This document shows positions 3,184 to 42,769 of a DNA stretch of 64,000 nt, piece after piece. Below the pieces are notes generated by a model. It was not told the DNA's origin. It ran no database searches and was given only the letters and a program-made list of their open reading frames with translations. The position numbers were made by a program, and so were the translations under genes. Source of the DNA: Sphaerodactylus townsendi (Eukaryota); assembly GCF_021028975.2 (NCBI RefSeq), contig NC_059439.1:22568001-22632000 (forward strand), in the 5' to 3' direction. Every line of letters starts with the position of its first letter. Position 1 is the first letter of the stretch.

Positions 3184-4125
3184 TCAATTCATCACCCACT
3201 GAAATCCAAACAGTTTCTTTGCCACTTTCTGCATGGCCATTTGGATTTCTTTATTTCTCAGGCTATAGATGATGGGATTCATCAGAGGGGGCAATTCCGT
3301 ATATAGAAAAGCAGCCAATAAATCCACAGGTGGAGAGGACAAGGCCTTGGGCTTCAGGTATGAAAATGTACACGTGAAAAAAAACAAAGTAAAGACAATC
3401 AGGTGTGGCGTGCAGGTGGAAAGGGCCTTTTTCCTACCCTGAGCTGACTGGATCTTTAACACAGCAGAGAAGATACATTTATAATAAACAAATATACACA
3501 TAAAGCAAAATAAGCCTACAGTAAACACAGTTCCAATCAGAAGCCATTCATTGACTCTTGTATCTGTGCAAGATATCAGCAGTAATGGAGGGATATCACA
3601 GAAAAATTGCTTGATGCTGGACCTACAAAAAGATAATCGAAAGGTACTTGCTGTTTGTATTATTGCATAGATGATACTGCTCATCCAAGATGTACTTGCC
3701 AATTGGAGGCAAGTGTTCCAGCTCATGATCATCTGGTACTGCAGAGGATGGCAGATTGCTACATAGCGGTCATAAGCCATTATAGTAAGGAAGGTCAGCT
3801 CAGCAAATAAAAATGTGACTACTAGGAAAACCTGTGTGACACATCCAGAGAATGAAATCCATTTTTTGTTCCGGAAGGAATTGACCAGGGAGTTAGGAAT
3901 CGTAGTTGAAATGAAGCAGGCATCTACAATGGATAGGTTGACCAAGAAGAAATACATAGGTTTGTGAAGGTGAGGATTCTGGGCTACTGTCAGAATGAGA
4001 AGGAAGTTCCCAGTCATGGTTGCCAAATAAATGGAGAGAAATATCACAAAGTGTAAAATCTGCAATTCTCGGAGGTTGGAAAATCCCAGGAGGAAGAATT
4101 CTGTCGCCGCTGTTTGATTTATCAT
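3184..4125 (-). CDS. Olfactory receptor, family 14-like, intact (313 aa)
   Basis: N-glycosylation site NQT; motifs LHKPMYFFLVNLS, MAYDRYVAICHPLQY, FFCD, KALSTCTPHL, PLMNPIIYSLRN. Acceptor-like tttctcctcttgtctctccag ~25 nt upstream of the ATG. Confidence 0.95.
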   Translation of the reverse strand: MINQTAATEFFLLGFSNLRELQILHFVIFLSIYLATMTGNFLLILTVAQNPHLHKPMYFFLVNLSIVDACFISTTIPNSLVNSFRNKKWISFSGCVTQVFLVVTFLFAELTFLTIMAYDRYVAICHPLQYQMIMSWNTCLQLASTSWMSSIIYAIIQTASTFRLSFCRSSIKQFFCDIPPLLLISCTDTRVNEWLLIGTVFTVGLFCFMCIFVYYKCIFSAVLKIQSAQGRKKALSTCTPHLIVFTLFFFTCTFSYLKPKALSSPPVDLLAAFLYTELPPLMNPIIYSLRNKEIQMAMQKVAKKLFGFQWVMN

Positions 4126-5306
4126 TTTCGTGTGGGAAACATAAAAACTGGAGAGACAAGAGGAGAAATGATCTGTGGTAGGATTTCAGAAATATCCCCC
4201 ACACACACACACACTGTAAATTAAGCAAAGCAGTCTGCAAGTCTATTTTAATGTTAGGACTATTCTATTATTATTATTGCCTTACTTTTTGATATTCCTT
4301 TGCACATTTTTGTGACTCAGTTGAATATTCTTCATGTCAAGTCCCCATTTCAAACAGAGCTGCAAAGGGCTGGATCCAACCAACTTTTCTGCCGGAGGAA
4401 AGGGAAGTCAGGGATCCCCTTGACCACCCAAAATGCAATGGTGGGGCTCATGGTTCCTGCATAGTCAAAAGCCAGATGAAACTGCACTGTAATGGTGTGT
4501 GTGTTGGAGGGGGGTGGGATGGAGCACAAAAAAAGATGGCTCCAACCACCCAATTTCATTTTCAAATAAAATATATAAAATGTACGTGTATTATGAAATG
4601 ATTATAAAATTTATAATAAGTCTGATGGGCTTATTTCAGAATTTAATGGGAAGTAATCCAATAGACTGAGTTCAAGAGACTTTGTAGGACCAGAACTGGG
4701 ATGGTTATAGTAAGCAAAGATGGTAAGGCAATATGGTAGAAGTTCAGAAGGCAACTGGGCAAGCAATCCTAAGCATGTCTACTCAGCAAAGATGAGAAGA
4801 GGGTGAAGTTGAATAAAAAAGCTGAGCGGATTCAGCTCATTATATCTTTCCTGAATTAGAAACATTCCTCTGATAACCTAATATTTTTTTCCCATCCCCA
4901 TTTGAAGTTTTCCCTAAAACCTCACAAGCATTAAAACTAGGACATCCATAACTGTGTCTCACAAGCCTGCTCTCTCACTGTAATGTGTCCCGGTTTCATT
5001 GCTGCTTTTCCCTTTATATCACAACTTCACATCTCACTCCAACCATACGTCATTTATAAAGGATGGGTGATGCTATCTAAAGACAAAACAACAAAATCCT
5101 TGTTCTTCTTCAGACAAAATAATGATATAAAATGTTCACCTTGTCTAGTTTTCTCAGATGTGGTCCTCCAGGAAGAGAGAGCTCTGTGAAACAGATTTAC
5201 TATCTCTTCTTTTTATTTTTTTAACCACTCATCCCTCTGGGTTTTTATTGCTGAGAGATGCTCTAGAGAGCAAATTTTTTTTAATTTTCTTATCAGCCTT
5301 TTTATT

Positions 5307-7361: not shown

Positions 7362-8354
7362 TCAGGGTTTTTTGTGTCCTGATTGGATTCGATGCTGCAG
7401 TGATAGAGAGCTTTGTTTTTGGTTGATGGGCTCTCTCCAGAACTTGCAATAGAGCTTCCACAGCCCTGCTTTGATCTCCTTGTTCCTCATGCTATAAATG
7501 ATGGGATTCATCACTGGAGGGAGAATACAATAAGCCATAGTAATGATCCGGTTCAGACCTACCACGGAGCTGGATGTTGGATTTAGGTTGGCAAAGGTAC
7601 CAGTGAAAAGAAACAAGAAGACCACAGTAAGATGAGGGATGCATGTAGAGAAGGCTTTCTCTCTACCCTGCACAGAGGGGATCCTGAACACTGTTTTGAA
7701 GATTTCCACGTAAGATACCACTATAAAACTAAAGCAACCTAGTCCTAAACATGCACTCAAGCCAAGCGCCACAACTTCAACAAGATACAGATCATTGCAG
7801 GAGAGCTTGAGCAGTTGGGGGATCTCACAGAAGAACTGATTGATGATGTTGGAGCAGAAAGGCACTGCGAAGGTGGCTCCGGTGTGGACAGTTGCATAGA
7901 AAAGACCACTGATCCATGTGATGGCTGCCATTTGTACAGCTGCTTCCTTGTTGACCACTGTTTCATAATGCAGTGGGTCACATATGGCAACATATCGGTC
8001 GTAGGCCATGACTGTGAGGAGGAAGTAGTCTGATGCCATGAAGAAGAAGAGGAAGAAGACCTGGATAATACATTCTGAGTAAGAAATCAACCTGCTGTTC
8101 ATTAAACAGTTAGCCATGGCTTTGAGCATAGTTACTGAGATGTAGCCAAGGTCCATGACAGACAAATTTGCCAGGAAGAAGTACATAGAGTTACCGAGAC
8201 TGGAATCAGCGGCTACAGTTGTGATGATAAGAATATTCCCAATTAGTGCTGCCAGATAAATCAGCAGAAAGATCACAAACTGCATGAGCTGTATCTCCCG
8301 AACCTCAGAGAAACCCAAGAGCAGGAATTCAGTAATGTAGCTTCCGTTGGTCAT
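7362..8354 (-). CDS. Olfactory receptor, family 14-like, open frame (330 aa) with several altered consensus motifs
   Basis: MAYDRYVAICDPLHY, QFFCEIPQLLKLSC, KAFSTCIPHL, PVMNPIIYSMRN present; LHTPMY appears as LGNSMY. Confidence 0.92.
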   Translation of the reverse strand: MTNGSYITEFLLLGFSEVREIQLMQFVIFLLIYLAALIGNILIITTVAADSSLGNSMYFFLANLSVMDLGYISVTMLKAMANCLMNSRLISYSECIIQVFFLFFFMASDYFLLTVMAYDRYVAICDPLHYETVVNKEAAVQMAAITWISGLFYATVHTGATFAVPFCSNIINQFFCEIPQLLKLSCNDLYLVEVVALGLSACLGLGCFSFIVVSYVEIFKTVFRIPSVQGREKAFSTCIPHLTVVFLFLFTGTFANLNPTSSSVVGLNRIITMAYCILPPVMNPIIYSMRNKEIKAGLWKLYCKFWREPINQKQSSLSLQHRIQSGHKKP

Positions 8355-9268
8355 TTTAGACTTAAGCCATGACCTGCATGAAAACAGAGGTATACATAAG
8401 ATTAGTAAGATGAAACATATTTTTCCTTATACAGTTCTCACATTTTTTTGAAAGAATCATCGTCTCCTTTTCAATAAAATAATTTGGCGGAGAGATGCCA
8501 TAGGTTCTTGGTACACATTTTGCATGCTTTGACATGGGTCCAGGCGGCAATGCCTGTCACCTCTTATGATGACAATGGGTGGGAGGTAGTCAGGTCCCTG
8601 TGATGTATTGGCACCCTTCTCACAGTGAAGTCAATTAAGTGGCTTGGCAGAAGAAGTGATTCAAGATAGATACAGCATGACCTCTATGTGAATATTACCT
8701 GTTGTCATATGAATGATCAGCTGCTAAGGAGAGGGAGGGAAAAGAAATCTTTGCCTAGAAGATATCACTCTCTTCTTTATTAAGCGTCAAACAGGAGGTA
8801 CTTTGCAGGAAAGGCAATGGCAATGGTGCAGGTTAGTAATGTACATAAAAACAAAAAGAATTGGACACAGATACTGTCACCAGACACATCATTTTTGCAA
8901 ATAGTATTCCTATTCACATCTACAGAAACTGTGCAGTCACATTCTGAAACACACCTACTGAGAAGAATAAGACAAATAGGGAAATGGCCTGTGTGGGAGT
9001 TGACTGCGTTGGGAATACACAGTATGAAAGAATTACTTTAAAAGATTGGGAAAGCTCTGAACCAACCTTTGCCCCAGGTACTCTCCCTTCTGATGGAGAA
9101 GGTAATGAGAAGAAGAGCAGAGCAGAGTAGAAAAGAGAAGATTCAAATGCGATATAGCAGTTAGTCATCTGATGGGTACCCAAAAAGGATGAAAAAGATG
9201 TGGACAATTTTAGAGGCCAACTAAATAAAAAACTAAATAAAGAAAAGGAAGGAAAGCATGAATAAGAT

Positions 9269-12060: not shown

Positions 12061-12644
12061 ACTGTGTTTTTCAACAGTCTAGCCTCTCACCCCGCCCCCC
12101 CCAAAATAAGCAAACCTGTGCAGCTTACTTAGACCCCTATTAAAGGTATCCTGTAACCACAGTCACTGACATTTTGTGGTTGGCTCTGCCTCTTGTGGCA
12201 ATAATGTCGTAGCTGGCTGCATCTCCTTCAGCAGCTACTCACTCACTTGGGTCAGAATTCCCAAAGAGCCTGAAGGGTGGAAAAAGCTGGGAATCCCTGA
12301 TGTATATACTATCGCAGGATCCACTGGTCCTTTCCTGCCAATTAAGGATTTTTCTTTTGAAGTTGCCATGAAATTTTATCAGACTACAACGAATAATGCT
12401 GTTATGTTAAGAATGGGGAATAAAGCCTCTAGAGGAAAGAGTAATGTACAGTCTCTATCTAAGAAGTCTTAATTGGGTGAATGTAAACATTTCGTTCACT
12501 TCACCACCTGAAAGATGGATTCATGAATTAACAGAAAACAAATGGATTGCAATAGCTTTGTCCAAAATAGCACTGCACTGATAGGTATTGTATCAACTTA
12601 TGTTTTAGTGTATTTTTCGTCTTACTCTGCTAGTAGCCCACATG

Positions 12645-12812
12645 GACATTGGTAGTGGTGGACTTTCAGTAGCATTTTCTCCTGGTATTTCACCTGCATC
12701 TGTGGCTGGCATCTTCACCTCTGAAGAGGCCAGCCACAAATGCAGTTGGAACATCAGGAGAAAATGCTACTGGAATCTGGTCATACAACCTGGAAACCCC
12801 ACAACACCCCAG
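12645..12812. mobile_element. Penelope-derived palindrome with two decayed hammerhead-like cores
   Basis: Inverted arms 12667-12717 and 12722-12772; core ctgaagaggccagccacaaatgcagttggaacatcagg. Confidence 0.7.
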
Positions 12813-12878
12813 TGACTAAAGGAATTTTCCATTTTTCCAGAACTTATGATCACTGACTTTTTATTCCAAAATTTATTT

Positions 12879-13880
12879 TCAGTGAAGTCTAGAGACAAAG
12901 GATTTTTCCCCAATAAAGATTCTGCTTTTCGAAGACACCATTTTGACTTTGAGTTTCCTAATAGCATTTTTCATTTCTGTATTTCTTAGAGTGAAGATCA
13001 TTGGGTTCAGCATTGGGGTGATGAGAGTATACATTGCAGAAACAAACTTGTCTCCTGGAAATACCGTGAAAGGCCGGTTATACATAAATATTGCAGGGAC
13101 AAAATTTAAGCTCAGTACCACCATATGTGCTGTACAAGTAGAAAGAGCCTTGTGTTTTCCCTCTGTGACATGAGTTCGAATTTTCACCAAAATGACAGAA
13201 TATGACACAAGTAAGACCAAGAACATAGCTGTAACAATTAATCCACTATTAGAAACCATCAGCAGTTCAGTGATGTACGTGTCAGTACAAGCCAGCTTGA
13301 CAACTTGAGGGATGTCACAGTAGAAATTGTCCAGTATGTTGGGTCCACAGAAGGGCAGCTGAATGATGATCCCAATCTGGACAATGGAGTGAACAAAGCC
13401 ACCCAACCAAGAACTTGCTACCAAACTAATACAAACCGTTTGATTCATAATCATTACATACTTCAGTGGCTTGTAGATAGCTATGTACCGATCCACAGCC
13501 ATGACGGTGAGCAAGAAATCCACAGAAGCACCAGTAAAGTGGAAAAAGAAAATCTGAGCAATGCACCAGTTGTAAGAAATGGTATTGGAATGGGATAGCA
13601 GGCCTGCCAGCAGCTTCAGAGAAGTGACCGTAGAATCACTGATATCTAAAGCAGCAAGATTGGCCAATAGGAAATACATTGGTGTATGGAGCTGAGGCAT
13701 GAATATCACAGTGAAAATAATGGTGAGGTTTCCAAGCCACGTTGTTACATAGATAGTGAGAAAAATCAGGAAGAGGATGAAATTCCACCTTGGATTCTGT
13801 GAAAGACCTATTGTCTGCACCCTTGGACTCACAGAGAAGCCCAAGAGAACAAATTCGGTTACTGTTGTATTTGTCACCAT
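12879..13880 (-). CDS. Olfactory receptor, family 4-like, intact chimeric gene (333 aa)
   Basis: LHTPMYFLLANL, MAVDRYIAIYKPLKY, LDNFYCDIPQVVKLAC, KALSTCTAH, PMLNPMIFTLRN. About 10 extra residues before TM1 (GLSQNPRWNF). Confidence 0.93.
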   Translation of the reverse strand: MVTNTTVTEFVLLGFSVSPRVQTIGLSQNPRWNFILFLIFLTIYVTTWLGNLTIIFTVIFMPQLHTPMYFLLANLAALDISDSTVTSLKLLAGLLSHSNTISYNWCIAQIFFFHFTGASVDFLLTVMAVDRYIAIYKPLKYVMIMNQTVCISLVASSWLGGFVHSIVQIGIIIQLPFCGPNILDNFYCDIPQVVKLACTDTYITELLMVSNSGLIVTAMFLVLLVSYSVILVKIRTHVTEGKHKALSTCTAHMVVLSLNFVPAIFMYNRPFTVFPGDKFVSAMYTLITPMLNPMIFTLRNTEMKNAIRKLKVKMVSSKSRIFIGEKSFVSRLH

Positions 13881-15371
13881 TTTCGGGGGAAAATATTTGA
13901 AAGGGAGGATTTTGTTTGTGTGTATTATTCCGTTTGATTCACTGTTTTAGAATATCCATTATTTCAATATTTTATTTTGTGAGAGAATTGAATTTCTACT
14001 CATTGCATCAGCTGAGCATATTCTCCATTAATCTCAAAGGTAACTTGTCAAAGGTATTCACAAACAAGAGAATTCATCTTATTTGTAGCCACAAGTTGCA
14101 CCTGAAAGAAATTTAATCATAAAATAAAATTAGTTGATTCAAAAGCATAAATAATGCTGTGATTCTGTGGAGAGGCTATTGGTCAATGGATTAAAAACCT
14201 ATTATTCTACCCATATCATATGGCTTTTTTCTTTCTTGTTTGGAAGATTCATTAATTAACAGATTAACCAGAGATCATCTTGGTTTGTTGAACAAAATCA
14301 TACACTCCCTAATGAACAGGTACATCCTTTTAAAGTGGGGTCAAGGTAGTCACTGCAGTTGGAGCATAGAATCTGGAAGAATCTGGAAGAATCACCCTCT
14401 TCCTATTTTGTGAACGGAACTGGCTTCCATGATCAGAGAAGAAATAAATTATTCAAGCCATATTAGAAACATCAATAAATTGTATCCCAAGTATCTGTAG
14501 CTTTGTAATTTTCACACGGATCAAATGATCTCACAGGTTCCTGTGTCTACCACCATCATTGACAAAGATAGCGTGATTTAATACTTGTTATCATCTTACC
14601 TGTTGAGTACTACAATCCTATATTATGAGTGTTGTGGGTGTATTGTCTTCTTCATTTCTATTTGATTTCATTTCTTGGAGATGTGAACTTTTTCATTCCA
14701 CCATGTGCACTGGTCGTGTTTTTCTTTTATACCTTATGGATTATTTCTGTGTCATTCGCCATTTATATAGTATAAACAGAATCATTTAATTGGGAAAACA
14801 TAAAGACAGTTGAATAGAAAAGAGTGCAGATTTGAACATTGTCATGTTTGATCAATACAAGGAAGAAACACTCTGAAGTAAGTTTTAAATAAAATTGTGG
14901 TCTTCAGTATTTCCAAGAACAGCAATAAAAACCTAGCAGAATTGTTAATATCTACCAGAATTCTGATCTCATTGAATTCTTTCACTTTACAGCTTCTAAT
15001 ATTCTGCAATTGTCCAGTATATTATATGTTCAACATTCTACAAAACTTTAAGCTTCCAAACACAGGTAGCTCAAAACAGAACATGTTTGATAGTACAAGA
15101 GGTAACAATGCATGGTTGTCAAGAACCAAACCCTTGCCTGAGCGAAGACACAGTGGGCTTACAAACTTCTGTTGATGAAACTCATTGTCACCTTTTAAGA
15201 ATTTAGAAATAATTCTAACTGTAATTTTCCAGTACGTGAGAATATTTTTCCAATGAAAGATATTCAAAACATCTTCTACATAAGAATAATACTTGAGCTT
15301 GTGCAACTAACAATATAACATTATATTTTTAACAATTTGGAAAGTTCAACATCCCCAAACAACATCTAGGG

Positions 15372-15895
15372 CAGTGGTGGCAAACCTATGGCACAGGTGC
15401 CAGAGGTGGCACTCAGAGCCCTCTCTGTGGGCACACTCAAATAGAGTGCCCCTGCATACATCTAGGCTGGCCTGGGCTGCTGGGCTCGATTATTATCATT
15501 AAACCTAAGACCTAGTTTTGGGAAAGCAGTGTAGGTAACACTGTTAAGTACTGTTAAACCCCACTGATTAAACCCCACTGATTTTCATGTGAAGAAGTAA
15601 AGCATGATCCTTTACCTGGGAGTAAGCTTGGTTGCTGGCAATTGGGCTTGCTTCTGAGTAAACCCTCCTAGGGTCGTGATTCACCTGTTGGAAAAGTTGC
15701 AAAGTTGCTTCAAAGCAAAGTCACCGACTACCACCAAGCTTACTCCCAAGTAATGCACGCTTCAGAGCCAACAATTTTTTTCTAAACTAAAACCTAAATA
15801 GTCAGGTTAAATTGCCGTGTTGGCACTTTGCGATAAATAAGAGGGTTTTGGGTTGCAATTTCGGCACTCGGTCTCGAAAAGGTTTGCCATCACTG
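15372..15895. mobile_element. hAT non-autonomous DNA transposon
   Basis: TIRs CAGTGGTGGCAAACC / GGTTTGCCATCACTG; 8-bp TSD atctaggg/atctgggg. The paralogous site near 30710 has a single atctaggg. Confidence 0.88.
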
Positions 15896-16364
15896 ATCTG
15901 GGGGTGGTGGGGGAGAATGGATTCAAATGATGATTGTTTTTGTTTCAGAGACGGATTTAAGGCTCTATAAGTGCTTCTTTCTTTATGAAGATTTGAATAT
16001 GAATTAGGCACACAATAGAGCAGTTCCTGGATACTAACCTAAGCCCTTGTTTCCTACTGGAGAAACTGAATGATTCATAGTAATAATTGCCTTGCTTTAG
16101 GTATTGCCTTGCACAGGTGTTGCCACTGCAATAATCAAGCAATCCACAGTCATTTCTCATGTCATACCTGGAATTGCCATGTCCACATATTCAGGGAGGT
16201 AAAAAAATACATCTTCAACCCCCAAGGAAAATCCACAGACATGTAAGAACAGCATGTCAAGGTTTGAATTGGTACAGCTGTGTTCCTTGTTGTCACACAA
16301 GAACTCTGCCTTACTCTCACACAGTGGAAGATAATCAAGATATTTCAATGATATGGGGATGAGA

Positions 16365-16389
16365 CCACAAGGGATATCATTAAAAAGTA
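16365..16389 (-). promoter_or_regulatory. Putative homeodomain (Lhx2) + O/E (Ebf) composite site upstream of the chimeric OR4
   Basis: Minus strand TACTTTTTAATGA-TA-TCCCTTGTGG; 12/13 match to the AACTTTTTAATGA motif of mouse OR H/P elements. Confidence 0.55.
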
Positions 16390-16439
16390 TATGCATAATA
16401 GAAGTCTTGTTTTTATTCTGATATGCTGTTTGTGTATCC

Positions 16440-16840
16440 TTAAAGGTCAAGATAGTCCCCTGAGCAATCAGCAGATCATTACTGACCCGTGGAGTGACAT
16501 CACATCACAACATTTACTAGGTAGCTCTAATCAGTTAGCTCTAGACTATTTGTATCCCATGTTTCTGTAGCTTTGTAATTTTCACGCATTTTTCATTGTG
16601 TAATGATAGTCCCTCGGCTTGTTTGATTCAAGGGGCAATTGGGGTAAGGCCATGGCCCAGAGGCAGAGCATCTGCTTTCCATGTAGAACGTCCCTGGTTC
16701 AATGCCCAGCATCTCCAGGATCAGATATGAGATGATGTGGAGGACCTCCATCTGAGGGTCCAGGGAAACACTGCCAGTCAAAGAAAAGAGTAATGACCTG
16801 GATAGACCAATGGTCTTGCATAATAAAGGGCAGTTTCACA
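16440..16840. mobile_element. Sauria SINE 3' fragment (antisense) and a tRNA-derived SINE with CR1-type tail (sense); both also in the paralog at 31250-31610
   Basis: aaaggtcaagatagtcccctg tail; A/B-box-like ggcccagaggcagagc...ggttcaatgccc. Confidence 0.6.
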
Positions 16841-17802
16841 TATTCAGTTATGGCTCTACCTAAGGATCTGCACCCTGTCAACAAATCATTTGCCCATTTC
16901 GGTACCACAAGATCCTGTAGCCAAATCATTTGCATATCTCCAGATCTGATGTACTCACTGATCAAATGTAAAATGTGCTGATTCAGCACCCCATACTCAA
17001 TGTCAATGAGCCCCTCTCACAAGCTGATTTGTTTATTGTCTTATCACAAGTTTATTTGTTCATTGACTTTATCCATAGTCCATCCTTTTTCAAAAAGACT
17101 CAGAACAGGTTTCCCACGGGAATGAGAAACAGAGATTATTTTAGCAAGAAGCAATATAAGTGTTTCACCATTTCAGTTCTAAGCAGGCTCAGAAGAAGTC
17201 AGCTTTGGGAAAACATATGTATTATAAAAAGGACTAATTTAATTCTTAGAAATGCATAACAATGAATGAAAGCATGAATGAATTGATGTGATCAGCCAGA
17301 CAAGAGCAGAGAAGGCACACTCACTGGACAGATGTCTGGGATGTCATAGGCACTGCATGTAGGCCCTCAAAGCTTCACAAATAATTTGGCCTGAGAAACA
17401 ATACTATGATAACCTCCTGGGTCTCTGATCACACTTGTACAGGCAAAGGAGCTATCATTATATTTAGTTAATTAATTAATTATTTTCCTCCCTCTCACAA
17501 AGTAGAAAATCACAATAAGAATTGCTTATAGATTCTCAAGCACTGCCAGTGATTTTATCAACAAATGATATTTTAGCACAGACTGTAGGCTTAGTGCCCA
17601 CAAATTACTTCAGTAGCCACCTCTTGTGCTTAGAAAGTGACTTTGCTTTCATCTTTGGGGGGGGGGTCTCTGAGATTGGGAGCCAGGTGTGATTGTGCAT
17701 AATGCAGGTGTACCTTTGGGAACCCAGTCATTCAGACTGTTACCTGAATTGGTGAGGACTGTTCCCTTTCAGTAGGGAAATTAGCAGGAATGGACCTACC
17801 AT

Positions 17803-20175: not shown

Positions 20176-21507
20176 TTATTTTTTTCCAGTCCTTCTGTAA
20201 TGAAATTGCTTTTCCCTGAAGAAAACAATTGAAGATTGGACTTCGACTTTGAGTTTCCTAATAGCATTTTTCATTTCTGTATTTCTTAGAGTGAAGATCA
20301 TTGGGTTCAACAGAGGGGTGATGAGAGTATACATTACAGCAACAAACTTGTCTCCTGGAAATACTTTGAAGGGACGGTTATACATGAATATTGCAGGTCC
20401 AAAATTTAAGCTAAGTACCATAATCTGTGTTGTACATGTAGTAAGGGCTTTGTTCTTTCCTTCTGCAACATGGGTCCTAATCTTGATCAATATAACGGAG
20501 TATGACACAAGTAAAGCAGGGAAGATTATTATGAGGAGTACTCCACTATTAGAAACCATCAGTAGTTCGATAACGTATGTGTCAGTACAAGCCAATTTGA
20601 GGACTTGTGGAACATCACAGAAGAAGTTGTCCAATACATTTGGTCCACAGAAGGGCAGCTGAGCAAGGATGCCAATCTGGACAATGGAGTGAACAAAACC
20701 GCCCAACAACATTCCTGATACCAAACCTATGCAAACGTGGTGATTCATGATAAGAGGATACTCCAATGGTCTGATAATTGCTATGTATCTGTCAACAGCC
20801 ATCAAAACTAATAAACCATCTGATGCACCTGCAGTGAAATGGAAAAAGAAAATTTGAGTGATACAACATTCATAGGAGATGGTATTGTGGTTTGATAGAA
20901 GGCCTTCCAGCATTCTGAGAGCAGTCACTGTAGAATCACTGATGTCTGTGGCTGCAAGACTATTTATTTTATTTATTTATTTTATTTATTTTTTAAGCTT
21001 ATATACCGCCCCATCCCCAAGGGGCTCTGGGCGGTGTACAACATTAAAAGACAATATAAGCAATTAAAACATGTAAAAGCAGCGAAAACCATAAGATATT
21101 TCCAATAATATAATAAGCTACAGTAAAATAGATGGCGTTGTAATCTGCTATTATAATTCTGTCCCTTCCCTAAAGGGGGAAACAGCATCCCACATTCCGA
21201 TCTAAAAATCCCTCCCCCTTCCAAAAGGGAGGAGTGGCGAGTCTGAGATGACAGCTGGCCCTGGTATCAGAGCCGGGGGCAAAGGGCACCATTAACGGCT
21301 GGTTCCTCCAAAGGCCAGTAGGAAGTACATAGATGTGTGGAGTTGATGCACAAAAATCACAGTGAAGATAATTGTGAGGTTCCCAAGCCATGTTGTTACA
21401 TAGACAGAAAGAAAAATCAGGAAAAGAATGAAATTCCATTTTGGGTTCTGTGTGAGACCTAGCAGAACAAAGTCTGAGACTTTTGTAGTCTGGTTGTCCT
21501 GAGACAT
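20176..21507 (-). pseudogene. Olfactory receptor, family 4-like, disrupted by a 351-bp L2 insertion
   Basis: The 5' part MSQDNQTT...MYFLLA (21507-21313) and the 3' part SLAATDISDST...PLLNPMIFTLRN (20961-20176) rejoin into a 326-aa open frame. Confidence 0.92.
20962..21312 (-). mobile_element. 5'-truncated L2 3' end inserted in OR coding sequence
   Basis: (AAAT)n tail and stem-loop ccgccc...gggcggt; 5' end tttggaggaaccagccg resembles the L2 at ~6865. Confidence 0.8.
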
Positions 21508-26346: not shown

Positions 26347-27279
26347 TTATTCTTTGATTACAAAAGTAATCATTTTTCTAATCATTTTTTTAATAGTATC
26401 TTTCATTTCTCTGTTTCGCAGAGTAAAGATCATCGGATTTAACATTGGAGTGATAAGAGTATAAAAGACAGAGGCAATCTTGTCTGCTGGAAACACCTGG
26501 AAAGGACGATCATAAATGAACATTCCTGGGACAAAATTGAAGCTCATGACTATGATTTGTGCAGCACAGGTCGACAGGGCTTTGTGTTTCCCATCTGTGA
26601 CATGTGTTCGGATCTTCACCAAAATGACAGTGTACGATGCAAGTAAGATACAGAAGATTAGTGTGAGAAGCAATCCACTGTTTGAAACCATCAGCAGCTC
26701 TGTGACGTAAGTGTCTGTGCATGCCAGTTTGATGAGTTGAGGGACATCACAGTAGAAATTGTCCAGTATATTGGGCTCACAGAAAGGCAGCTGAAGTATC
26801 AGTGCTACCTGGACAATAGAGTGGGCAAAGCCACCCAGCCAAGCACCTGCAACCAACCCAATGCAAACACCTTGATGCATAATGAGTACGTATTGCAGTG
26901 GTTTGTAGATTGCTATGTATCTGTCAACAGCCATTATTACGAGGAAGAAAACCACTGCGCCTCCAGTAAAGTGGAAGAAGAAAATCTGGGCTGTACACCA
27001 ATGATAGGAGATTGAATTTGTATGGGAGATGAGACCCCACAGCATTTTGACTGTAGTCACTGTAGAGTCACTGATGTCCATGACAGCAAGGTTGGCCAAA
27101 AAGAAGTACATGGGTGTGTGGAACTGAGGCATTACAATCACAATGACAATAATTGTCAAATTCCCCAACCAGGTTGTGATGTAAATGGTGAGAAAAATGA
27201 AGAAAAGGATGGTCTGCACCCTTGGACTCTCAGAGAAGCCCAAGAGAACAAATTCGGTTACTGTTGCATTTGTCACCAT
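26347..27279 (-). CDS. Olfactory receptor, family 4-like, intact (310 aa from MVTNAT)
   Basis: FHTPMYFFLANL, MAVDRYIAIYKPLQY, LDNFYCDVPQLIKLAC, KALSTCAAQ, PMLNPMIFTLRN. The ATG at 27279 aligns with the paralog start at 13880. Confidence 0.95.
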   Translation of the reverse strand: MVTNATVTEFVLLGFSESPRVQTILFFIFLTIYITTWLGNLTIIVIVIVMPQFHTPMYFFLANLAVMDISDSTVTTVKMLWGLISHTNSISYHWCTAQIFFFHFTGGAVVFFLVIMAVDRYIAIYKPLQYVLIMHQGVCIGLVAGAWLGGFAHSIVQVALILQLPFCEPNILDNFYCDVPQLIKLACTDTYVTELLMVSNSGLLLTLIFCILLASYTVILVKIRTHVTDGKHKALSTCAAQIIVMSFNFVPGMFIYDRPFQVFPADKIASVFYTLITPMLNPMIFTLRNREMKDTIKKMIRKMITFVIKE

Positions 27280-27724
27280 TTTTCCCCTTCGGAGAAAAAA
27301 TATTTGAAAGGGAGGATTTTGTTTCTGTATATTACTCAATTTGATTCAATGTTCTCCAGTTTCCATTATTTCAATATTTTGTATTGTATGGGAATTGCAT
27401 TTCTTCCATTGATCTCCAAGATAACTTGTCATAAGTAGACATAACACAGTGTTTGGAGCCAGAAATTGCACCTGAAACAAATTTTAAAAATAAAGCAAAA
27501 TTAGTGGATTCAAAATCATAAATAATGCTGTGGTGCTGTGTCGAGTGAGGCTCCTGGTCACTCTAACATGAAATGGATTCAAAGCAAAATAGGTTGCTAT
27601 CTTAAGTACACTGCTTTCCTTGTGGTAAGCCTCATGAAATAAATTAAGATTTACTTATTATTAGACCAGCTTAAGATTGCTCTTTGAATTGTATAATATA
27701 CAACAGTCATCTCTCATCTCAATA

Positions 27725-27905
27725 TATTTTTGTTCTTATTTTGTTTATTCGTTGGGCTTCTATACCGCCCCATCCCCAAAGGGCTCTGGGCGGTGTACAA
27801 CAAATAATCACATATAAAATAAAACAACTAAAACCTTTAAAAGCAGCGATAAAATGAGCACTATAGTAACTAGAATGACTAAAAGTGGCGTCCAGCTACC
27901 CCATC
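27725..27905 (-). mobile_element. L2 3' end, same family as the insertion at 20962-21312
   Basis: tataccgccccatccccaaagggctctgggcggtgtacaaca near-identical to 21002-21043. Confidence 0.75.
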
Positions 27906-27919
27906 TCTAGAGAATCATA

Positions 27920-29472
27920 TTGGTCGGCCCTGTTTCGGCCTGGTTGACCCTGTTTCAGCCTATTGGTCAGCCCTGTTTCAGCCCTATTTCAGCCTATTGG
28001 TCGAGCCCTATTTCAGCCCTGTTTCAGCCCTGTTTCAGCCTATTGGTCGGCCCTGTTTCAGCCCTGTTTCCGGCCCTATTGGGTCAATCCTGTTTCAGCC
28101 TAATTTCAGCTATTTCAGCCCTGTTTGGATTCGGCCTATTTTCAGCCTGATGGTCAGCCCTGTTTCAGCCCTATTTCAGCCTGATGAGGGTCAGCCCTGT
28201 TTCAGCCCTATTTCGGCCTATTGATTAGCCTGTTTCAGCCTATTTCAACCCACAATGGTCAGCCTATTTCCGAAGCCTGTTTCAGCTGTTTCAGCCCTAT
28301 TTGGTCCAGCCTGTTCAGCCAGTAGGTCAGCCTATTTCAGCCTATTTCAGCCCTGTTCGGCCTATTGGTCAGCCTCAATTTCAGCCCTGTTGGTCAGCCC
28401 TGTTTCAGCTGTGGTCAGCCGTATTTCAGCCCTATTTCAGCCTATTGAGATTCGGCCCTGTTTCCAGCCCTATTTCAGCCTAATGAGGGTCGAAGCCCTA
28501 TTTCAGCCCTATTTCAGCCTGTTGAGATGGCTATTTCCAGCCTATTTGAGGTCGAGCCTATTTCAGCCTAATGGTCAGCCTATTTCAACCCTATTTCAAC
28601 CCTATTTCAACCCTATTTGGTCAACCCTATTTCAACCTAATGGTCAACCCTATTTCAACCCTATTTCAACCTAATGGTCAACCCTATTTCAACCCTATTT
28701 CAACCCTATTTCAACCTAATGGTCAACCCTATTTCAACCCTATTTCAACCTAATGGTCAATCCTATTTCAACCCTATTTCAACCCTATTTCAGGTCAGCC
28801 CTATTTCAGCCAATGGTCAGCCATTATTTCAGGCTATTTCAGCCTGGTGGTTAGGCCCTATTTCAACCCTATTTCAACCTAATGGTCAACCCTATTTCAA
28901 CCCTATTTCAACCTAATGGTCAACCCTATTTCAACCCTATTTCAACCTAATGGTCAACCCTATTTCAACCCTATTTCAACCTAATGGTCAACCCTATTTC
29001 AACCCTATTTCAACCCTATTTCAACCTAATGGTCAACCCTATTTCAACCCTATTTGGTCAACCCTATTTCAACCTAATGGTCAACCGTATTTCAACCCTA
29101 TTTCAACCTAATGGTCAACCCTATTTCAACCCTATTTCAACCTAATGGTCAACCCTATTTCAACCCTATTTCAACCTAATGGTCAACCCTATTTCAACCC
29201 TATTTCAACCCTATTTCAACCCTATTTGGTCAACCCTATTTCAACCTAATGGTCAACCCTATTTCAACCCTATTTCAACCTAATGGTCAACCCTATTTCA
29301 ACCCTATTTCAACCCTATTTCAACCCCATTTGGTCAACCCTATTTCAACCTAATGGTCAACCCTATTTCAACCCTATTTCAACCTAATGGTCAACCCTAT
29401 TTCAACCCTATTTCAACCCTATTTGGTCAACCCTATTTCAACCTAATGGTCAACCCTATTTCAACCCTATTT
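27920..29472. repeat. Minisatellite of 11/12/14-bp units (tcaaccctatt, tcaacctaatgg, tcaaccctatttgg)
   Basis: Directly visible; the left ~650 bp uses degenerate tcagccctgtt / tcagcctattgg variants. Confidence 0.95.
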
Positions 29473-29750
29473 TATCACAGTCATGCCAACCCTCTGTTGG
29501 CATCACAGCCATGCCACATACCTGTTGAGTACTGCAATCCTATGCTTATGAGGAATATGGGCATATTGTCATCTTCATTTCTAGTTGTTTTCATTTCTTG
29601 GAGATGTGAGCTTTTTAGTTAATGCCTAGTGCACTATTTCTGTGTCGTTCAGCATTTCTGTGTCATTCAGCATTTACATACTATAATCAGAATCACTTAA
29701 TCAGGATAATTGAATAGAAAAGAATGCAGATTTGAACACTGTCATGTTTG

Positions 29751-30044
29751 GTTCTGGAGGGTTTTCCGGGCTGTGCGGCCGTGGTCTGGTGGATTTTGTT
29801 CCTAACATTTTGCCTGCATCTGTGGCTGGCATCTTCAGAGGTGTATAGCAGAGAAAAGTCTGTTTCTGACAAACTTTTCTCTGTTTTACAGAGAAAAGAA
29901 ACAGACTTTTCTCTGTGATACACCTCTGAAGATGCCACTTCCACAAATACAGCTGAAACGTCAAGGAACAAAATCCTGAATACGACTTTCATAGCCTAAA
30001 CCCTCCAGAACCAGTTGAATCCGGCTGTGAAAGCCTTCAGCAAT
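29751..30044 (+). mobile_element. Penelope-derived inverted-repeat element with hammerhead-ribozyme-like motifs and 15-bp TSD
   Basis: Arms ~29751-29865 and ~29898-30011; terminus ccggctgtgaaagccttcagcaataca. TSD acactgtcatgtttg/acattgtcatgtttg; empty site at 14836-14850. Confidence 0.8.
29923..29966 (+). ncRNA. Minimal type I hammerhead ribozyme-like motif (probably decayed)
   Basis: cct-CTGAAGA-tgcc...agct-GAAA-cg-TC-aagg; core boxes intact, stem II mismatched. Confidence 0.5.
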
Positions 30045-30492
30045 ACATTGTCATGTTTGATAAGCACAAGAGTGAAACACTCTGAGGTAAGTTCTCATAG
30101 AACTGTGGTCTTCAGTGTCTTAAAGAACAGCTGTTAAAACCAAGCAAAATTGTTTAAATCTAGCAGAATTCTGATTCCATTGAATTCTTTCACTTCACAG
30201 CTTCTAATATTCTGCAGTTGCCCAATATACGATATGTTCAGCATACTACACAACTTTAAGCTTCCAAACCAAAGGTAGCCCATGTTTTGATAGTACAAGC
30301 GGTAACAATGTACAGTTATCAAGAACCAAATCCTTGTCTGAGAGAAGAAAGTTACAGCGAGCTTACAAATCTCTGTTGATGAAACTCACTGTCACCTTTT
30401 AAGACTTTAGAAGTAATTCTTACTGTGATTTTCCAGTATGTGATTTTTTTTTTCAATGCAAGATATTCAAAACATCCTGTAGATAAGTCTAA

Positions 30493-30633
30493 GGCCCCTT
30501 CCACACACGCAAAATAATGCATTTTCAAACCACTTTTGCAACTGTTTGCAAGTGGATTTTGCCATTCCGCACAGCTTCAAAGAGCACTGAAAGCAGTTTG
30601 AAAGTGCATTATTCTGCATGTGCGGAATGAGCC
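30493..30633 (-). mobile_element. PIF/Harbinger-like MITE
   Basis: TIRs plus TAA/TAA TSD; absent from the paralogous site near 15290. Confidence 0.85.
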
Positions 30634-31173
30634 TAAGCTTGTGCAACTAACTGAGCTTTGTGCAACGAACAATATAAGGTTATATTTTTACCAGTTTGGA
30701 AAGTTCAGCATCTAGGGAAAAAATGAATTCAAATGATGATTGTTTTTGTTTCAGAGACGGATTTAGGACTCTGTAGTATTAATTTCCTTATGAAGATTTG
30801 AATATGAATTAGGCGCACAATGGAGCAATTCCTGGATACTAACCTGAGTCCTTGTTTCCTACTGAAGGAACTGAATGATTCACAGTGATCCTTGCCTGGT
30901 TTTAAGTATTTATTTGCACAGGTGAGGCCAGTGCAATAATCAGGCAATCCACAATCCTTCCTTGTGTCATAGCTGAAATTGCCATGTCCCCTTATTCAGG
31001 GATGTAAAAAAAATACATCTTCAACCCTCAAGGGAAATCCAGAGACAAGTTGTAAGAATGGCATGTCATGATTTGAACTGTTACAGCTGTATTCTTCGTT
31101 GTCATACAACAATTCTGCCTTACTCTCACGCAGTGGAAGATAATCTAGATATTTCAATGATATGGGGATTAGC

Positions 31174-31198
31174 CCACAAGGGACACCATTAAAAAGTA
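31174..31198 (-). promoter_or_regulatory. Putative homeodomain + O/E composite site upstream of the OR4 at 27279
   Basis: Minus strand TACTTTTTAATGG-TG-TCCCTTGTGG. Confidence 0.5.
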
Positions 31199-32922
31199 TA
31201 TGCATAACTGCAGTCTTGTTTTTTTCTAATAGGCTGTTTGTGTATCCTTAAAGGTCAAGATAGTCCCCTGAGCAATCAGCAGATCATTACGGACCCATGG
31301 AGTGACACCACATCACTACATTTACTTGGTAGCTCTGATCAATTCTGATTAGCTCTAGACTATTGTGCAATGATACTCCTTTGGCTTGCTTGATTTCAAG
31401 GGGCAAGGGTAAGGCCATGGCCCAGTGGCAGAGCTTTCCATGTAGAACATCCCTGGTTCAATGCCGAGCATCTCCATTTACAAAGATCAGACATGAGAGG
31501 ATATGGAGGACCTCCATCTGAGGGTCTAGAGAAACACTGCCAGTCAAAGAAAAGAATAATGACCCAGATAGAACAACGGTCTTACATAGTAAAGGGTAGC
31601 TTCACATGTTCAGTTATGGTTATACCTAAGGATCTGCTCCCTATCAACAAATAATTTGCACTTTTCCAGATCTGATACACTCACCAACCAGATGTAAAAT
31701 GTGCTGAGTCAATGCTTTTATACCTAACACAAGCAGTTTTGCAGTTGCAAATATATGTTATTAAGAATGTGGTGATGAAAACACTATTTCAGAAAAAAAG
31801 ATCAGTCTCCCAATTATTTTTAGCCATTTTAGTTAAATGTAACAGCAAAATTTAGGGGCATTCAAGATTTGTAACATGCCGAAACCTTTGGATGCTTAAA
31901 TCCAGAGGTTGGAGCCAGGAACAGAAAAAGCAGATTTTTTTACAAGCCTGATAAAAACCCTAGGTTGGGAGAGAAATCTGAATTCTTAAAAAGGGTGGGA
32001 AGGAGAGAAGAAGAGAGGCTTTGGGGGCTTTCAGGGAAGGGAAAGAGGAAATATTGGGGGGGGGGATTAAGATGCTTCCTTCATGTCCTTGTGCCCCCAT
32101 TATTTATATCAACTGCTTAAGAAACAAGACACTGCCACTAGCCAATTACTAAATAATACCAGAATGTTTGAAATATGGGGGGGGGGGGGAATTCTGACAA
32201 TTATCCATGTAACTGTGGGAAACAGTGACATATATCAACAGAATACTGCCTAGTGTATTGAATGTTGTAAGCTTCTCAGAGCCCATTGTGAATTGGCAGC
32301 CTAAAAAATCTAACAAATAATAATAATAACAATAAAATGTGGGGCCTAGAAATTCAAGGAGAAACAATCATAATTATGAGCTGATGACATGGCCTGAAGA
32401 AGAAATAGTTTCGTTTCCCCCCCAATTCATTTTAGGTTTAATGGGAGAAATGTTTCTCTCACACATTGTTGTTTTCTTCTTTGTGATTGATTTTCATTTC
32501 TACTGGGTTCAGTAACCTATTTCAGATGAGGTTCCTCCCTTGTCCATCAAACTGGGATGAGATTCTCCCAGATTATGTCTCCTGCTGTCCAAAGGCACCC
32601 CTTGACTAAGCAAAACTGCTGAGTTAATTGACATAATGAGATTGAAATTACAGATCATTCTCCAGGTGGCCACTGTGGTACACTAGTTTTGAAACTACTG
32701 ACAGACACAATCTATTAAAGGTGTGATAGTAATACATGTATTTCACTTCATTTCAAGCTAGAAGCTGACTTTGGGCATATGAAGTGAGAACCCCTTTGGG
32801 CATGTAAAGTGAGAGCCACCCCACCATTGCTCACATAGTGGAACATAGGGTTGTTCCTAACCAGCTTTTTTTGCTCTATCTCATCTAATTCTCCATTCTG
32901 TAACCCCCAACCCAATGACTAA

Positions 32923-34464: not shown

Positions 34465-34624
34465 GGCATAGTAGAGCATCAGATCTGTGAAACTAAGCAG
34501 AGTTGATACTTCAATCTACAAAGGGGTAGAAAAGTCAATGTCAAACCACCTCTGCTTGTAACTTGTCTTAAAAACCCTATGGGGTTGCCATAATTCAGCT
34601 GTGACTTGACACTTTACACATATG
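34465..34624 (+). mobile_element. Degenerate 5S-derived SINE overlapping the 3' end of an OR CDS
   Basis: atcagatctgtgaaactaagcag...aaaccacctctg...aaaccctatggggttgccataattcagctgtgacttgacactttacaca matches 255-1140 and 37165-37218. Confidence 0.7.
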
Positions 34625-35551
34625 TATGATCTTGTTGAGGATACTTCTCAAGGAATCTTTTACTTTCTCATTTCTGAGACCATATATGAAAGGATTGAGC
34701 ATGGGAGTCATCATTGTATTCATCACAGAGCCTACTTTGTTGAAATCCAGAACATTTCCTTTGGTAGGACGGACATAAATGAAGATACAGCTCCCATAAT
34801 ACAGTGTAACCACAGTCAAATGAGATATGCATGTTGAAAAGGCCTTCTTTTGGCCCTTTGCTGATGGTATCCTCAAGACAGCAATAATAATGTAGACATA
34901 GGACACAAATGTTATAAGAAGAGAGCCCAGTAGCAGTATGCAGGAGGTTCCAAAGTCAATCAATTCAGCCAGTGATGTGTCAGCACAGACAAGTTTAAGT
35001 AAAGGGGCACTGTCACAGAAGAAGTGATCAACTATGTTTGGGCCACAGAATGGCAAGCCAGCTGTCACAATGCTGGGAACTAAAATAATCAAGAAGCCAC
35101 CAATCCATGACCCCAAAAGAAGCTGGAAACAGACCTTGCCATTCATGATGGATGTATAACGTAGTGGGTAACATATTGCCAGGTAGCGGTCAACGGACAT
35201 AACAGCCAAGATGAAGAATTCAGTAGAGCCCATGAGGAAATAGAAGAATGACTGTGTAAGGCAGCCGACAAAAGAGATGATCTTCTTCCCTGTAATAATA
35301 TTTACTAGCATCTTAGGCACAACAGTAGAAGTGATCATGAGTTCCAAGAATGAGAGGTTACTCAAGAAAAAATACATGGGTGATTGGAGGTGGTGACTGA
35401 TTAGTACTAATGCAATTATCATTGCATTACCTACAACGGTCAATACATACACCAAGAAGAAGGCAACAAAAAGTAGAATTTCTAGTGAGTGAGTGCTCTG
35501 AAATCCCAGAAGGATGAATTCAGTCACAATTGTTTTATTACTTTCCTCCAT
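34595..35551 (-). CDS. Olfactory receptor, family 6-like, intact (likely start MEESNKT; in-frame ATGs extend to 35566)
   Basis: LQSPMYFFLSNLS, GSTEFFILAVMSVDRYLAICYPLRY, HFFCDSAPLL, KAFSTCISHL, PMLNPFIYGLRN. Confidence 0.95.
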   Translation of the reverse strand: MEESNKTIVTEFILLGFQSTHSLEILLFVAFFLVYVLTVVGNAMIIALVLISHHLQSPMYFFLSNLSFLELMITSTVVPKMLVNIITGKKIISFVGCLTQSFFYFLMGSTEFFILAVMSVDRYLAICYPLRYTSIMNGKVCFQLLLGSWIGGFLIILVPSIVTAGLPFCGPNIVDHFFCDSAPLLKLVCADTSLAELIDFGTSCILLLGSLLITFVSYVYIIIAVLRIPSAKGQKKAFSTCISHLTVVTLYYGSCIFIYVRPTKGNVLDFNKVGSVMNTMMTPMLNPFIYGLRNEKVKDSLRSILNKIIHMCKVSSHS

Positions 35552-36466
35552 ATTTGAGTGCATCATATTTCCTGGGGAAAAATGGGATTGGGGAAGGAGA
35601 ATGAAAATAAATTATTCTGGGAGGGAGAAAGAGCTAGCCTTTATTGGCCATTTGTTGGATCCATTCAACAGGCATTGAAAGTTTTGTTTGGCATAAGTTT
35701 CTGTTGGTGCAAGAGATCTTCCACTGATGGAATGAACTGCTTCCACTGGAGAAATGTTCCACTGTTAGAAGAATGAAACTTTTGGATCCAACACCTTAAT
35801 ACCATACTGTTGTGCTTGGAGATTCCACATACAGAAGAATAACAGTAATACTTTTTTCCTGGGATCTCCTACTTCAAGCTGAAGGTAAGGACTGGCTGCT
35901 GTGTGGTTTCCAGTAAGGAATGGTGAGAAACAAATCTTACCATGACATGCCTCTGAACATGCCAGCCATACATGTGTCATAAATATTAGGACAAAAACTA
36001 CTAGTCCACAGCTACATGGTCCAAAAAATCCACCACAGCCAGTGATTCCAGCCATGAAAACCTTTGGTAATACACTGAAGGTGAGAAGTTTTCATATTTG
36101 AGTGCTTAATGAGAATAAAAACCTCTGTGCACCCTAAAATCTAGGCAGAAGAGTTGGATGAACTCTTTGACACACTAGTACATTAAAAACATATTCTCTC
36201 TTTCTGTGTGTGTGCGCACGTGCGCATGTGCACGTGCCTGCGTATTTCACAGCAGTGAAACATTCCCTCATGTGGTTACTTACTTGCAACCTGAACTTAT
36301 GCCATCCAGAAAAAAACAAAAAACAAAAACACTCGGTTTTGCTTTATGTCTAAACAAACTGAGTTTCTTCTCATGCTATAATTATGATTTTTGATTTGAA
36401 AGATGCATTCTTAGGTTTCCATGGAGGTATATTTATACACAACTGAATTAACATTGCCCTGACTTA

Positions 36467-40732: not shown

Positions 40733-41670
40733 TCAGGCATCTTTTATTTTTGAAGCTATTCGTCTTAGGACATGTCTCAGGGCCTCTTTCATTTGTTCAT
40801 TTCTCAGACTGAAGATGAAAGGGTTCAGTAAGGGTGTCAATATGCCAGAAAATGTGGCTAATGCTTTGTTCATGCTCATGCTATCAGTCTGGGATGGCCT
40901 GACGTACACAAAAATTGAGATTCCATAGCCCATGGACACAACAGTCAAGTGAGAGACACAGGTGCCAAAGGCCTTCTTTCTTCCTTGAGCAGAAGGAATC
41001 TTAAGAATGGTTGTAATTATGTAGACATAAGAAGTAGCAGTAAACGAAAGGGAACCAAGCAACAGAAGTAAAGAATCAATGAAGTCAATCAATTCAATAA
41101 GGCTTATGTCTGTACAGGCAAGATGTAGCAAAGGGGCACTATCACAGAAGAAATGGTTGATGATGTGAGGTCCACAGTCACCTTCAGCACTGTTGACAAG
41201 AACACAGACAGGAAACCACCAATCCAAGAGCCAATCACCATCTTGACACAAACAGTCCCAGTCATGAGGGTGGGGTACCTAAGTGGGTAACAGATGGCCA
41301 TGTAGCGGTCAAAGGACATAGCAGCAAATAGGATGAACTCAGTGGAACCCATGAAGAAATAGAAGTATGATTGAGCAAAGCAACCACCAAATGAAATGGT
41401 TTTTTTCCTGGTCAAGAAATTGGCCAGCATTTTCGGCACTACGCAGGTTGTCATGAATATCTCGATCAAGGACAAATTGCTGAGGAAGAAATACATGGGA
41501 GAGTGGAGGTGAGAATCAATGATGATGAGTACAATAATGAGGGCATTCCCAAGCACTGTCACTATATACACAAAAAGAAAAACCAGAAAAAGAACAATCT
41601 CCACAGCAGGGTCATATACAAATCCAAGCAAAAGGATTTCAGTGATAGAGGTCACGTTGTCAGTTTCCAT
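40733..41670 (-). pseudogene. Olfactory receptor, family 6-like, frameshifted by a ~10-bp deletion near 41179
   Basis: One frame runs METDNVT...MSFDRYMAICYPLRY...STVLKV; a second frame continues CGPHIINHFFCD...PLLNPFIFSLRN. The xLP(F/Y) segment is missing. Confidence 0.92.
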
Positions 41671-42769
41671 GCTGTTGCATCTGGAATGTATGAGGGAAAG
41701 GAAAAGTTGTTAAAGGGGAGATGGGAAACCTATTCAAACTTGCAATCTTAATTACATTTCCTTAAGACTGGAGCGGAGAGCTATTTCACCCAACAGGTAA
41801 TTAAATGCCGTGCTTGTAACATAAATATTCACCAAGACAGGATAAATGTATAATATACAGTCTAAAAAAATAGAATACAATATCAGTAACAAAACCACTT
41901 GTTAACTGTGTTAAATAAATACAATATTTATTTACATTTGACTTTGGGTGGGATTCAACCATTTTTTCTGCTTGTGAAAAAGGTTAAGGGGGACAAAAAC
42001 TACATGGGATGCGGGCTGTAGATAGGGGAAACATTAGACAAGATGGAGTGAAAAAGCTGTCTGGAACACCCTCTTAGGTTGTTTAAAGGGGCTATGGCTA
42101 TGTAGTTCACCATTTCCTATTTTTGTAAATGAGAGAAGAAAACCAGAGAAGAATTATAGCCAAGTGTTCTGAGTAATCACCCCTAATAGCCTCCACATTT
42201 AACTAGTTTATTCACTAATTGAACTGTGTATGGAGAAAAGGATTTATTGAAAGGAAGAAATTTCTATGACTGAAATTAAATAGAAGGGAGATACAAATTC
42301 TGTACTAATTAGTAGAATTAGCTGTTGCCACAAAAAAGAACAGGAATCTAGTGGACAGAGTTTTATTTCACCATAAATTTTCCAAGAGTGATACTCTGCT
42401 CTTGAGATGCATTGAGTGGATGTCAGACATTAATGCGTAAGGCATGCATTAAAAACCACCCTGTTCAGAAACCAATAGACAAATATTTAAGTCTCCCCGA
42501 AAATCATCATTCATAATAAATAGAACTTCAAAGGGACACTCCAGCAAGATATTCTTCCTCACTATGACTGTTAATGAAAACCTGAAAATCCCCAACCATC
42601 CCATCCACTACAGATGTTAACTAGTGTAGGATTATTAGTGAATGGTTTTGGAGCTTTCCTGATCAGATTTGAATTTTATGTAAGGACATTTCACAGTGTA
42701 CTTCTGAGTTTTCATGGCTTCTTGGCATTGCTGTTTTCTTGCTATTTTTCATACAATCTACATATACTT

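Follow-up and report, generated by a model that had tools for sequence, protein, structure and literature searches.

Fusions between tandem olfactory receptor (OR) genes have been described in human. At OR51A2-OR51A4, according to the accessible parts of two studies, a deletion fusion has placed the protein of one gene under the upstream region of the other (PMC2570968, PMC2978733). The deletion has a frequency of about 32% there and unfused alleles coexist with it, as stated in the accessible part of PMC2978733. For OR8U1, the accessible part of PMC2570968 describes a fusion of OR8U8 and OR8U9 by NAHR in an identical interval of 119 bp. Here we describe a chimeric OR gene in a 64,000-nucleotide stretch of Sphaerodactylus townsendi DNA (the window). 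Our main reading, to which we give a probability of about 0.7, is that a recent deletion joined the 5′ end of one gene (D) to an old gene (A0), 33 nt out of register, placing the A0 receptor on D's promoter. No report of this gecko fusion was found in the literature outside subscription papers and supplements.

The window contains three OR4D-like genes, all on the minus strand and in the transcription order C, B, A. The features discussed below are as follows.

12879 to 13880, minus strand: gene A, chimeric OR4D-like reading frame, 333 aa, intact, with OR motifs and consOR4 as best fold match
13813 to 13880, minus strand: first 68 nt of gene A (codons 1 to 23), probably from the lost gene D, with the N4 sequon and FxLxG; identical to C at 66/68
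13809 to 13813, minus strand: the join, 33 nt out of homologous register, with 0-3 nt of microhomology, judged with C standing in for D
12879 to 13812, minus strand: body of gene A (A0 lineage), from ortholog residue I16 on, including all seven helices; clade support 97/95
13776 to 13841, minus strand: doubled pre-TM1 segment, C-like in 13841-13809 and A/B-like in 13808-13776, adding 11 aa between FxLxG and TM1
12945 to 13064, minus strand: gene-conversion tract common to A and B (20245-20364 on the B side), covering TM7 to helix 8 and including 65 consecutive identical nt
13881 to 16985, minus strand: D-type upstream region, paralogous to C's upstream region at 27297-31711, pooled distance 0.15
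20176 to 21507, minus strand: gene B, disrupted by an insertion; an old paralog of A and, by tree and AU test, not the donor of the body
20962 to 21311, minus strand: 350-bp 3′ end of a young LINE-like repeat in B, with a (TAAA)n-type tail; no target-site duplication was seen
26347 to 27279, minus strand: gene C, OR4D-like, 310 aa, intact, of the surviving genes the nearest paralog of the 5′ donor

The window also contains six OR genes from other subfamilies, at 3184-4185, 7362-8426, 34595-35611, 40733-41709, 47159-48049 and 55278-56225. In the gene at 40733-41709 the coding sequence is divided between two reading frames, and the gene at 47159 has an early stop.

The reading frame of gene A runs from 13880 to 12879 without an internal stop, and its parts come from two different paralogs, as had been proposed in the original prediction of an intact chimeric OR at this position. 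Class II ORs are recognised by the motifs GN, LHxPMY, MAxDRYxAI, KAxxTC and PxLNPxIF and by cysteines in TM3 and ECL2, and all of these are present in gene A. The precomputed annotation assigns Pfam family PF13853. By frame length, motifs and seven-helix fold, gene A is thus a class II, OR4D-like olfactory receptor. The N4 sequon and FxLxG are both there, though not at the usual distance of FxLxG from TM1.

This distance is changed by the doubled pre-TM1 segment. The first copy resembles C at 30/33 nt and B at 15/33, and the second resembles B at 27/33 nt and C at 21/33; the two copies lie in tandem and in frame and are identical to each other at 18/33 positions. As a result, VQTIG occupies the usual place of FxLxG, and FxLxG itself sits 11 residues too far from TM1. 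In a survey of the 120 best protein hits (111 scored, 9 unscored), the spacing from FxLxG to PMY was 46 residues in 110 of the 111 scored hits and 57 in gene A alone. Since every other scored hit has a spacing of 46, the doubled segment does not belong to normal variation; it is a genuine feature of the assembly and not a product of chance. Among 20 loci fetched from the same genome, the spacing was 46 in 14, 48 in one and 57 in A, with four unscored. The orthologs of other geckos do not carry the insert, having a single pre-TM1 segment that starts with MAQEN. The segment had been predicted to occur twice in an open frame, which is correct, but its length is 11 aa (33 nt) and not 10 aa.

We place the break between 13813 and 13812, as contigs of three public sequencing runs match the body up to 13812. 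This nucleotide is the third base of codon 23. The orthologs read V-L-I-G-L-S at that point, so I24 is A0's own residue. An out-of-register junction had been anticipated at about 13810, which proved right in kind and off by 2 nt in position. The assembly has no N in the join region. An in-register crossover within a long identical stretch, as in NAHR, is not what we find: only 0-3 nt are common to both sides, and the two sides are 33 nt off register. Judged from these letters, the join would fit end joining or a template switch rather than in-register NAHR.

The upstream DNA of gene A is C-like as well, with 13890-16985 matching 27297-31711 upstream of C in six blocks (71-89%). A candidate splice acceptor AG at 14103-14102, recognised from the letters alone, is common to the upstream regions of A and C. 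The likeness of the N-terminus and about 3 kb of upstream DNA to the gene at 27279 had therefore been noted correctly, but C was probably not the donor, its own upstream region being 14% different from the D-type upstream. We infer that the 5′ donor was a fourth gene, D, a paralog of C that is absent from this assembly. In two of the public runs (X5 and X6), A's upstream region is present at ~98% beside a more divergent C-like upstream, which argues that D is neither C nor A0. The 66/68 match to C and the two to three C-like copies in Gekko and Paroedura suggest that D was a whole C-like gene. A body of D was not seen among the 32 of 24,132 contig pieces listed. Neither did the assembly yield a second close copy of the body of gene A (protein search, 121 scored of 614 candidates, the next best after A, C and B at 58%) or of its upstream region (DNA search, four matches, all within the window). 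One exact pattern for an ortholog-type start gave no match in the assembly, a weak result since the pattern presumes conserved residues. A scan for O/E-like motifs was uninformative: A, B and C each have a single upstream site, which lies outside the shared blocks. C's upstream region also holds a degenerate tandem repeat of ~1.5 kb (window 27921-29472) that is absent from the paralogous upstream of A.

On our main reading, the former gene order would have been C-B-D-A0. A single deletion, by end joining or template switch, would have taken the body of D and the 5′ end of A0 while keeping the frame, and receptor D would have been lost through it. The DNA between the stop of B and the start of A would then be D's upstream region, and a promoter located there would be D's. 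The seven helices and motifs of A0 would consequently be expressed from D's promoter, with an N-terminus longer by 11 residues.

The contig sets of four public runs (X3 to X6) were compared with 12600-14600; the listing covered 32 of 24,132 pieces and, for differences, 40 of 148 rows. X3, X5 and X6 each have one contig that follows the body as far as 13812 (~98%) and then continues with 275, 205 and 199 unlike letters, respectively; in X3 the side of the unlike letters was inferred from the overlap with the next contig. X6 also contains 13853-14600, from which it differs by 15 letters and a gap of 7 nt (~98%), and X5 contains 13892-14279 with five other letters (~98%). A C-like upstream region is present in X6 too, at about twice the depth of the D-type upstream. 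The region 13873-14470 has no cover in X3 and X4 has holes, and neither is counted as evidence there. The unfused body is thus seen in three of the four runs compared and separate D-type upstream DNA in two of the four. Close relatives keep an unfused A0 gene and separate D-type upstream DNA. Directly upstream of the ATG of gene A (window 13881), 68 nt from the join, X5 and X6 have 7 nt that are missing from the window.

Beside the join, X3, X5 and X6 differ from the window at 8/441, 16/777 and 10/441 positions (1.8-2.3%), and therefore represent other haplotypes. At five sites all three differ from the window; four of these changes are synonymous and one is T/R. X4 is identical to the window at 934/934 nt, in four pieces from both sides of the join. 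It is silent on the join itself, because the piece nearest to it is cut off at a GANTC site and at a GATC site, a pattern seen in proximity-ligation libraries. Two further runs, X1 and X2, had the highest share of words (0.76), a measure that cannot tell the fused from the unfused state.

A contig across the join was found in none of the four runs compared, although contigs show presence and not absence, and the depth at 13739-13805 was that of a single non-bridging contig in each of the four. This leads to the alternative that D and A0 are separate genes in the animal, and that gap closing joined their contigs over paralogous sequence, dropping the middle. We consider such an assembly mis-join unlikely. 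It would account for the missing bridge and for the unfused body in three of the four runs, one of which (X3) comes from the organism label with the highest word share. Both breakpoints lie within 33 nt of homologous register, as gap closing could produce, and the protein cluster of gene A has one member, from this contig only. However, the parents are only ~75% alike with 0-3 nt common at the join, and hence too unlike to collapse. The relatives' contigs pass 13812 unbroken and there is no repeat that would end an assembly contig there. There is no N nearby and no leftover piece elsewhere in the assembly, and the frame is open, for which the chance is one in three. The runs with the unfused body are other haplotypes, and the clipped X4 does not speak on the join.

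It is also quite improbable that no whole gene D was lost, and that a partial C-type duplicate, consisting of the upstream region and first codons, was put on the 5′ end of A0 by conversion or insertion. The body of D is missing from the pieces listed, and conversion does occur in this cluster, as seen in the tract common to A and B and in the mixed N-termini of P0013, P0029 and P0104. On the other hand, X5 and X6 have D-type upstream at ~98% while their A0 has another 5′ end, which indicates that the donor was a separate locus. The 14% divergence of C's upstream region from the D-type likewise speaks against a partial copy of C, as do the two or three whole C-like genes of other geckos.

The body of gene A belongs to a lineage of its own. 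A protein search returned four near relatives of A at 81-85% over the full length, including those of Heteronotia, Eublepharis and Paroedura, each of which has one ordinary N-terminus with the GLS-NP-WNF segment already in it. Over residues 36-312, A is 86-89% identical to these orthologs (P0002-P0005) and 77% to B; at the nucleotide level, the bodies of A and B are identical at 679/864 positions. In the tree, A groups with P0002-P0005 (97/95), B with P0011 and P0013 of Eublepharis and Euleptes (100/99), and C with P0016 and P0021. This careful tree comprises 21 of 41 rows, hand-chosen to cover each clade, and the 41-row tree was run in quick mode only. A clade of A and B alone was rejected (p-AU 7e-51). 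A grouping of A with B and B's two orthologs held together was not (p-AU 0.056), and even under this grouping the split of A and B is, by these trees, older than the gecko lineages compared.

According to the original prediction, the body of gene A came from the gene at 21507 (B), by tandem duplication of the C-B pair and a deletion that fused C′ to B′, the chimera replacing the broken B. B as body donor was ruled out by the ortholog tree, the AU test, dS and the unrelated 3′ flanks, and the duplicated pair as a recent event is refuted by the ortholog tree. The segment GLSQNP-WNFILF, taken as a 5′ signature of B, is the ancestral N-terminus of A's own orthologs, and the 3′ signature falls in the short conversion tract of A and B. 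As for the check proposed at the time, trees place the body with its own orthologs and not with the gene at 27279 (C). Synonymous distances are 0.86 for A and B and 1.23 for A and C, and the pooled distance of the non-coding upstream blocks of A and C is 0.15 (254 differences in 1859 columns). Had a C-B pair been duplicated, the DNA on either side of the join should be equally old and A's 3′ flank should resemble that of B, yet the values are 0.86 and 0.15, an about sixfold difference, which argues against a duplicated pair. The 3′ flank of A showed no homology to that of B or C (E 0.01, word size 7). Gene A therefore does not group with B, lacks B's 3′ flank and does not have the age of the upstream duplication, as a recent copy of B would. 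In its DNA the body of A is closer to B than it is to C, the 65-nt A-B run lies at its 3′ end and the p-AU of 0.056 for A with B and B's orthologs leaves that wider grouping standing; set against the rejection of A with B alone and the unfused A0 of relatives at 98%, they leave this history very improbable. That a C-like/A-B-like pair was duplicated in the very distant past is still conceivable. What stands of the earlier account is the involvement of two paralogs, the out-of-register join and a deletion as the likeliest cause, and what falls are its donors and its history.

The conversion tract deserves a separate description. Its 65-nt identical run was reached in 0 of 10000 codon shuffles, and codons for the same residue differ between A and B at 2/31 positions within the tract and 58/142 elsewhere. 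The contigs of X3, X5 and X6 also break around it, so the tract likely predates the fusion. In-register mixtures of N-termini are found in other geckos as well: a C-like N-terminus on a P0042-type body (P0029 and P0104, Heteronotia) and an A-like N-terminus on a B body (P0013, Euleptes). Exchange of 5′ ends may thus be recurrent in this OR cluster.

A 33-nt tandem duplication within one gene, later diverged, is hardly credible in spite of copies that are tandem, in frame and 18/33 alike, since one copy goes with C (30/33) and the other with B (27/33), the upstream DNA switches ancestry over 3 kb at the same point, and the relatives' unfused contigs refute it.

The predicted disruption of the gene at 21507 by an insertion was confirmed, with 350 bp inserted at 20962-21311. 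The inserted DNA, put down earlier as L2, is the 3′ end of a longer, LINE-like repeat. Among 40 scored matches of 1658 candidates in a repeat search, the best other copies were 98-99% alike, so the repeat is young; longer copies exist. Where the 5′ end of the repeat meets B (window 21305-21325), some twelve bases of B's coding sequence are similar to the sequence that lies upstream in the element itself. As read from this resemblance, the insertion appears as a microhomology-type truncation of the repeat. In the database, B is modelled as a complete protein of 326 aa (P0014) from which the 350-bp insertion is left out. The ends of the insertion are not GT-AG, and B is likely a pseudogene annotated as intact. 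The branch of B in the tree is no longer than those of its orthologs. We found no support for the chimera as a functional replacement of B. A and B have coexisted since before the gecko families split, and 23% of their residues are different, so there is no link between the fusion and the loss of B. The chimera did not arise from B as a spare copy, and on the main reading the fusion takes a gene away.

What the altered N-terminus does to the receptor was addressed by modelling. The model of gene A has seven helices (mean pLDDT 70, pTM 0.56), with consOR4 (PDB 8uyq) as the best match (E 4e-19, 59% identity). Residues 5-25 have a pLDDT below 50 and form no N-terminal strand, and a model of the Eublepharis ortholog built from a matched alignment (pTM 0.82) shows such a strand at residues 12-15. 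This comparison is a weak one, as the extra segment falls in gaps of gene A's alignment and the models, five per job, spread widely (61-70 and 58-85). It gives a weak hint that the 11 extra residues may loosen the N-terminal cap. FxLxG is conserved across the superfamily according to the accessible part of PMC4626375, and the accessible parts of PMC13486327 and PMC13025043 contain nothing on an FxLxG strand. The odds that the product of gene A is a working receptor seem about even.

How many neurons choose a given OR depends in mice chiefly on cis variation, independent of OR function, as given in the accessible part of PMC5404925. By analogy, the likely effect of the fusion would be that A's binding pocket is expressed at D's frequency, with receptor D gone. 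The full picture, in which a real and possibly still segregating dwarf-gecko deletion allele arose without homologous crossover and carries a conserved receptor on a lost gene's promoter, working despite its broken N-terminal spacing, is possible but doubtful. If real, it would mean that non-homologous, out-of-register deletion between paralogs 75% alike can re-wire OR repertoires, and not only NAHR of near-identical ones. Fused and unfused haplotypes in close relatives would then offer a test, in a reptile, of the share of upstream DNA in receptor choice, and a test of whether the fixed spacing of FxLxG to TM1 is needed. The OR family is known to turn over in this way, and with a single gene concerned the case is on the whole only mildly surprising.

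In its canonical motifs and seven-helix fold, gene A is like the squamate OR4D1-like receptors (class II) and consOR4, with a body 86-89% identical to gecko orthologs. It is unlike the squamate receptors in having FxLxG 57 residues before PMY instead of 46 and the N-terminus of another paralog. Among the fusions, OR8U1, as described in the accessible text, is similarly an intact chimeric OR in a reference assembly with two genes on other haplotypes; however, its break is in register and mid-gene and mixes the binding pocket, whereas all seven helices of gene A come from one parent. As in OR deletion fusions generally, the 5′ part of gene A comes from an upstream same-strand paralog and the 3′ part from a downstream one. 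With OR51A2-OR51A4, going by the accessible parts of those papers, it shares tandem OR paralogs, breakpoints near the 5′ ends of the reading frames and the combination of one gene's upstream region with the other's receptor. The human break lies in extensive homology and leaves the OR51A4 protein, in contrast to gecko partners ~75% alike, joined 33 nt off register with 11 extra residues; the human alleles coexist in one species, while the unfused gecko state is seen in relatives' contigs. Out-of-register deletion fusion with a promoter swap is thus likely of a kind known from human ORs, with the out-of-register join as the variant.
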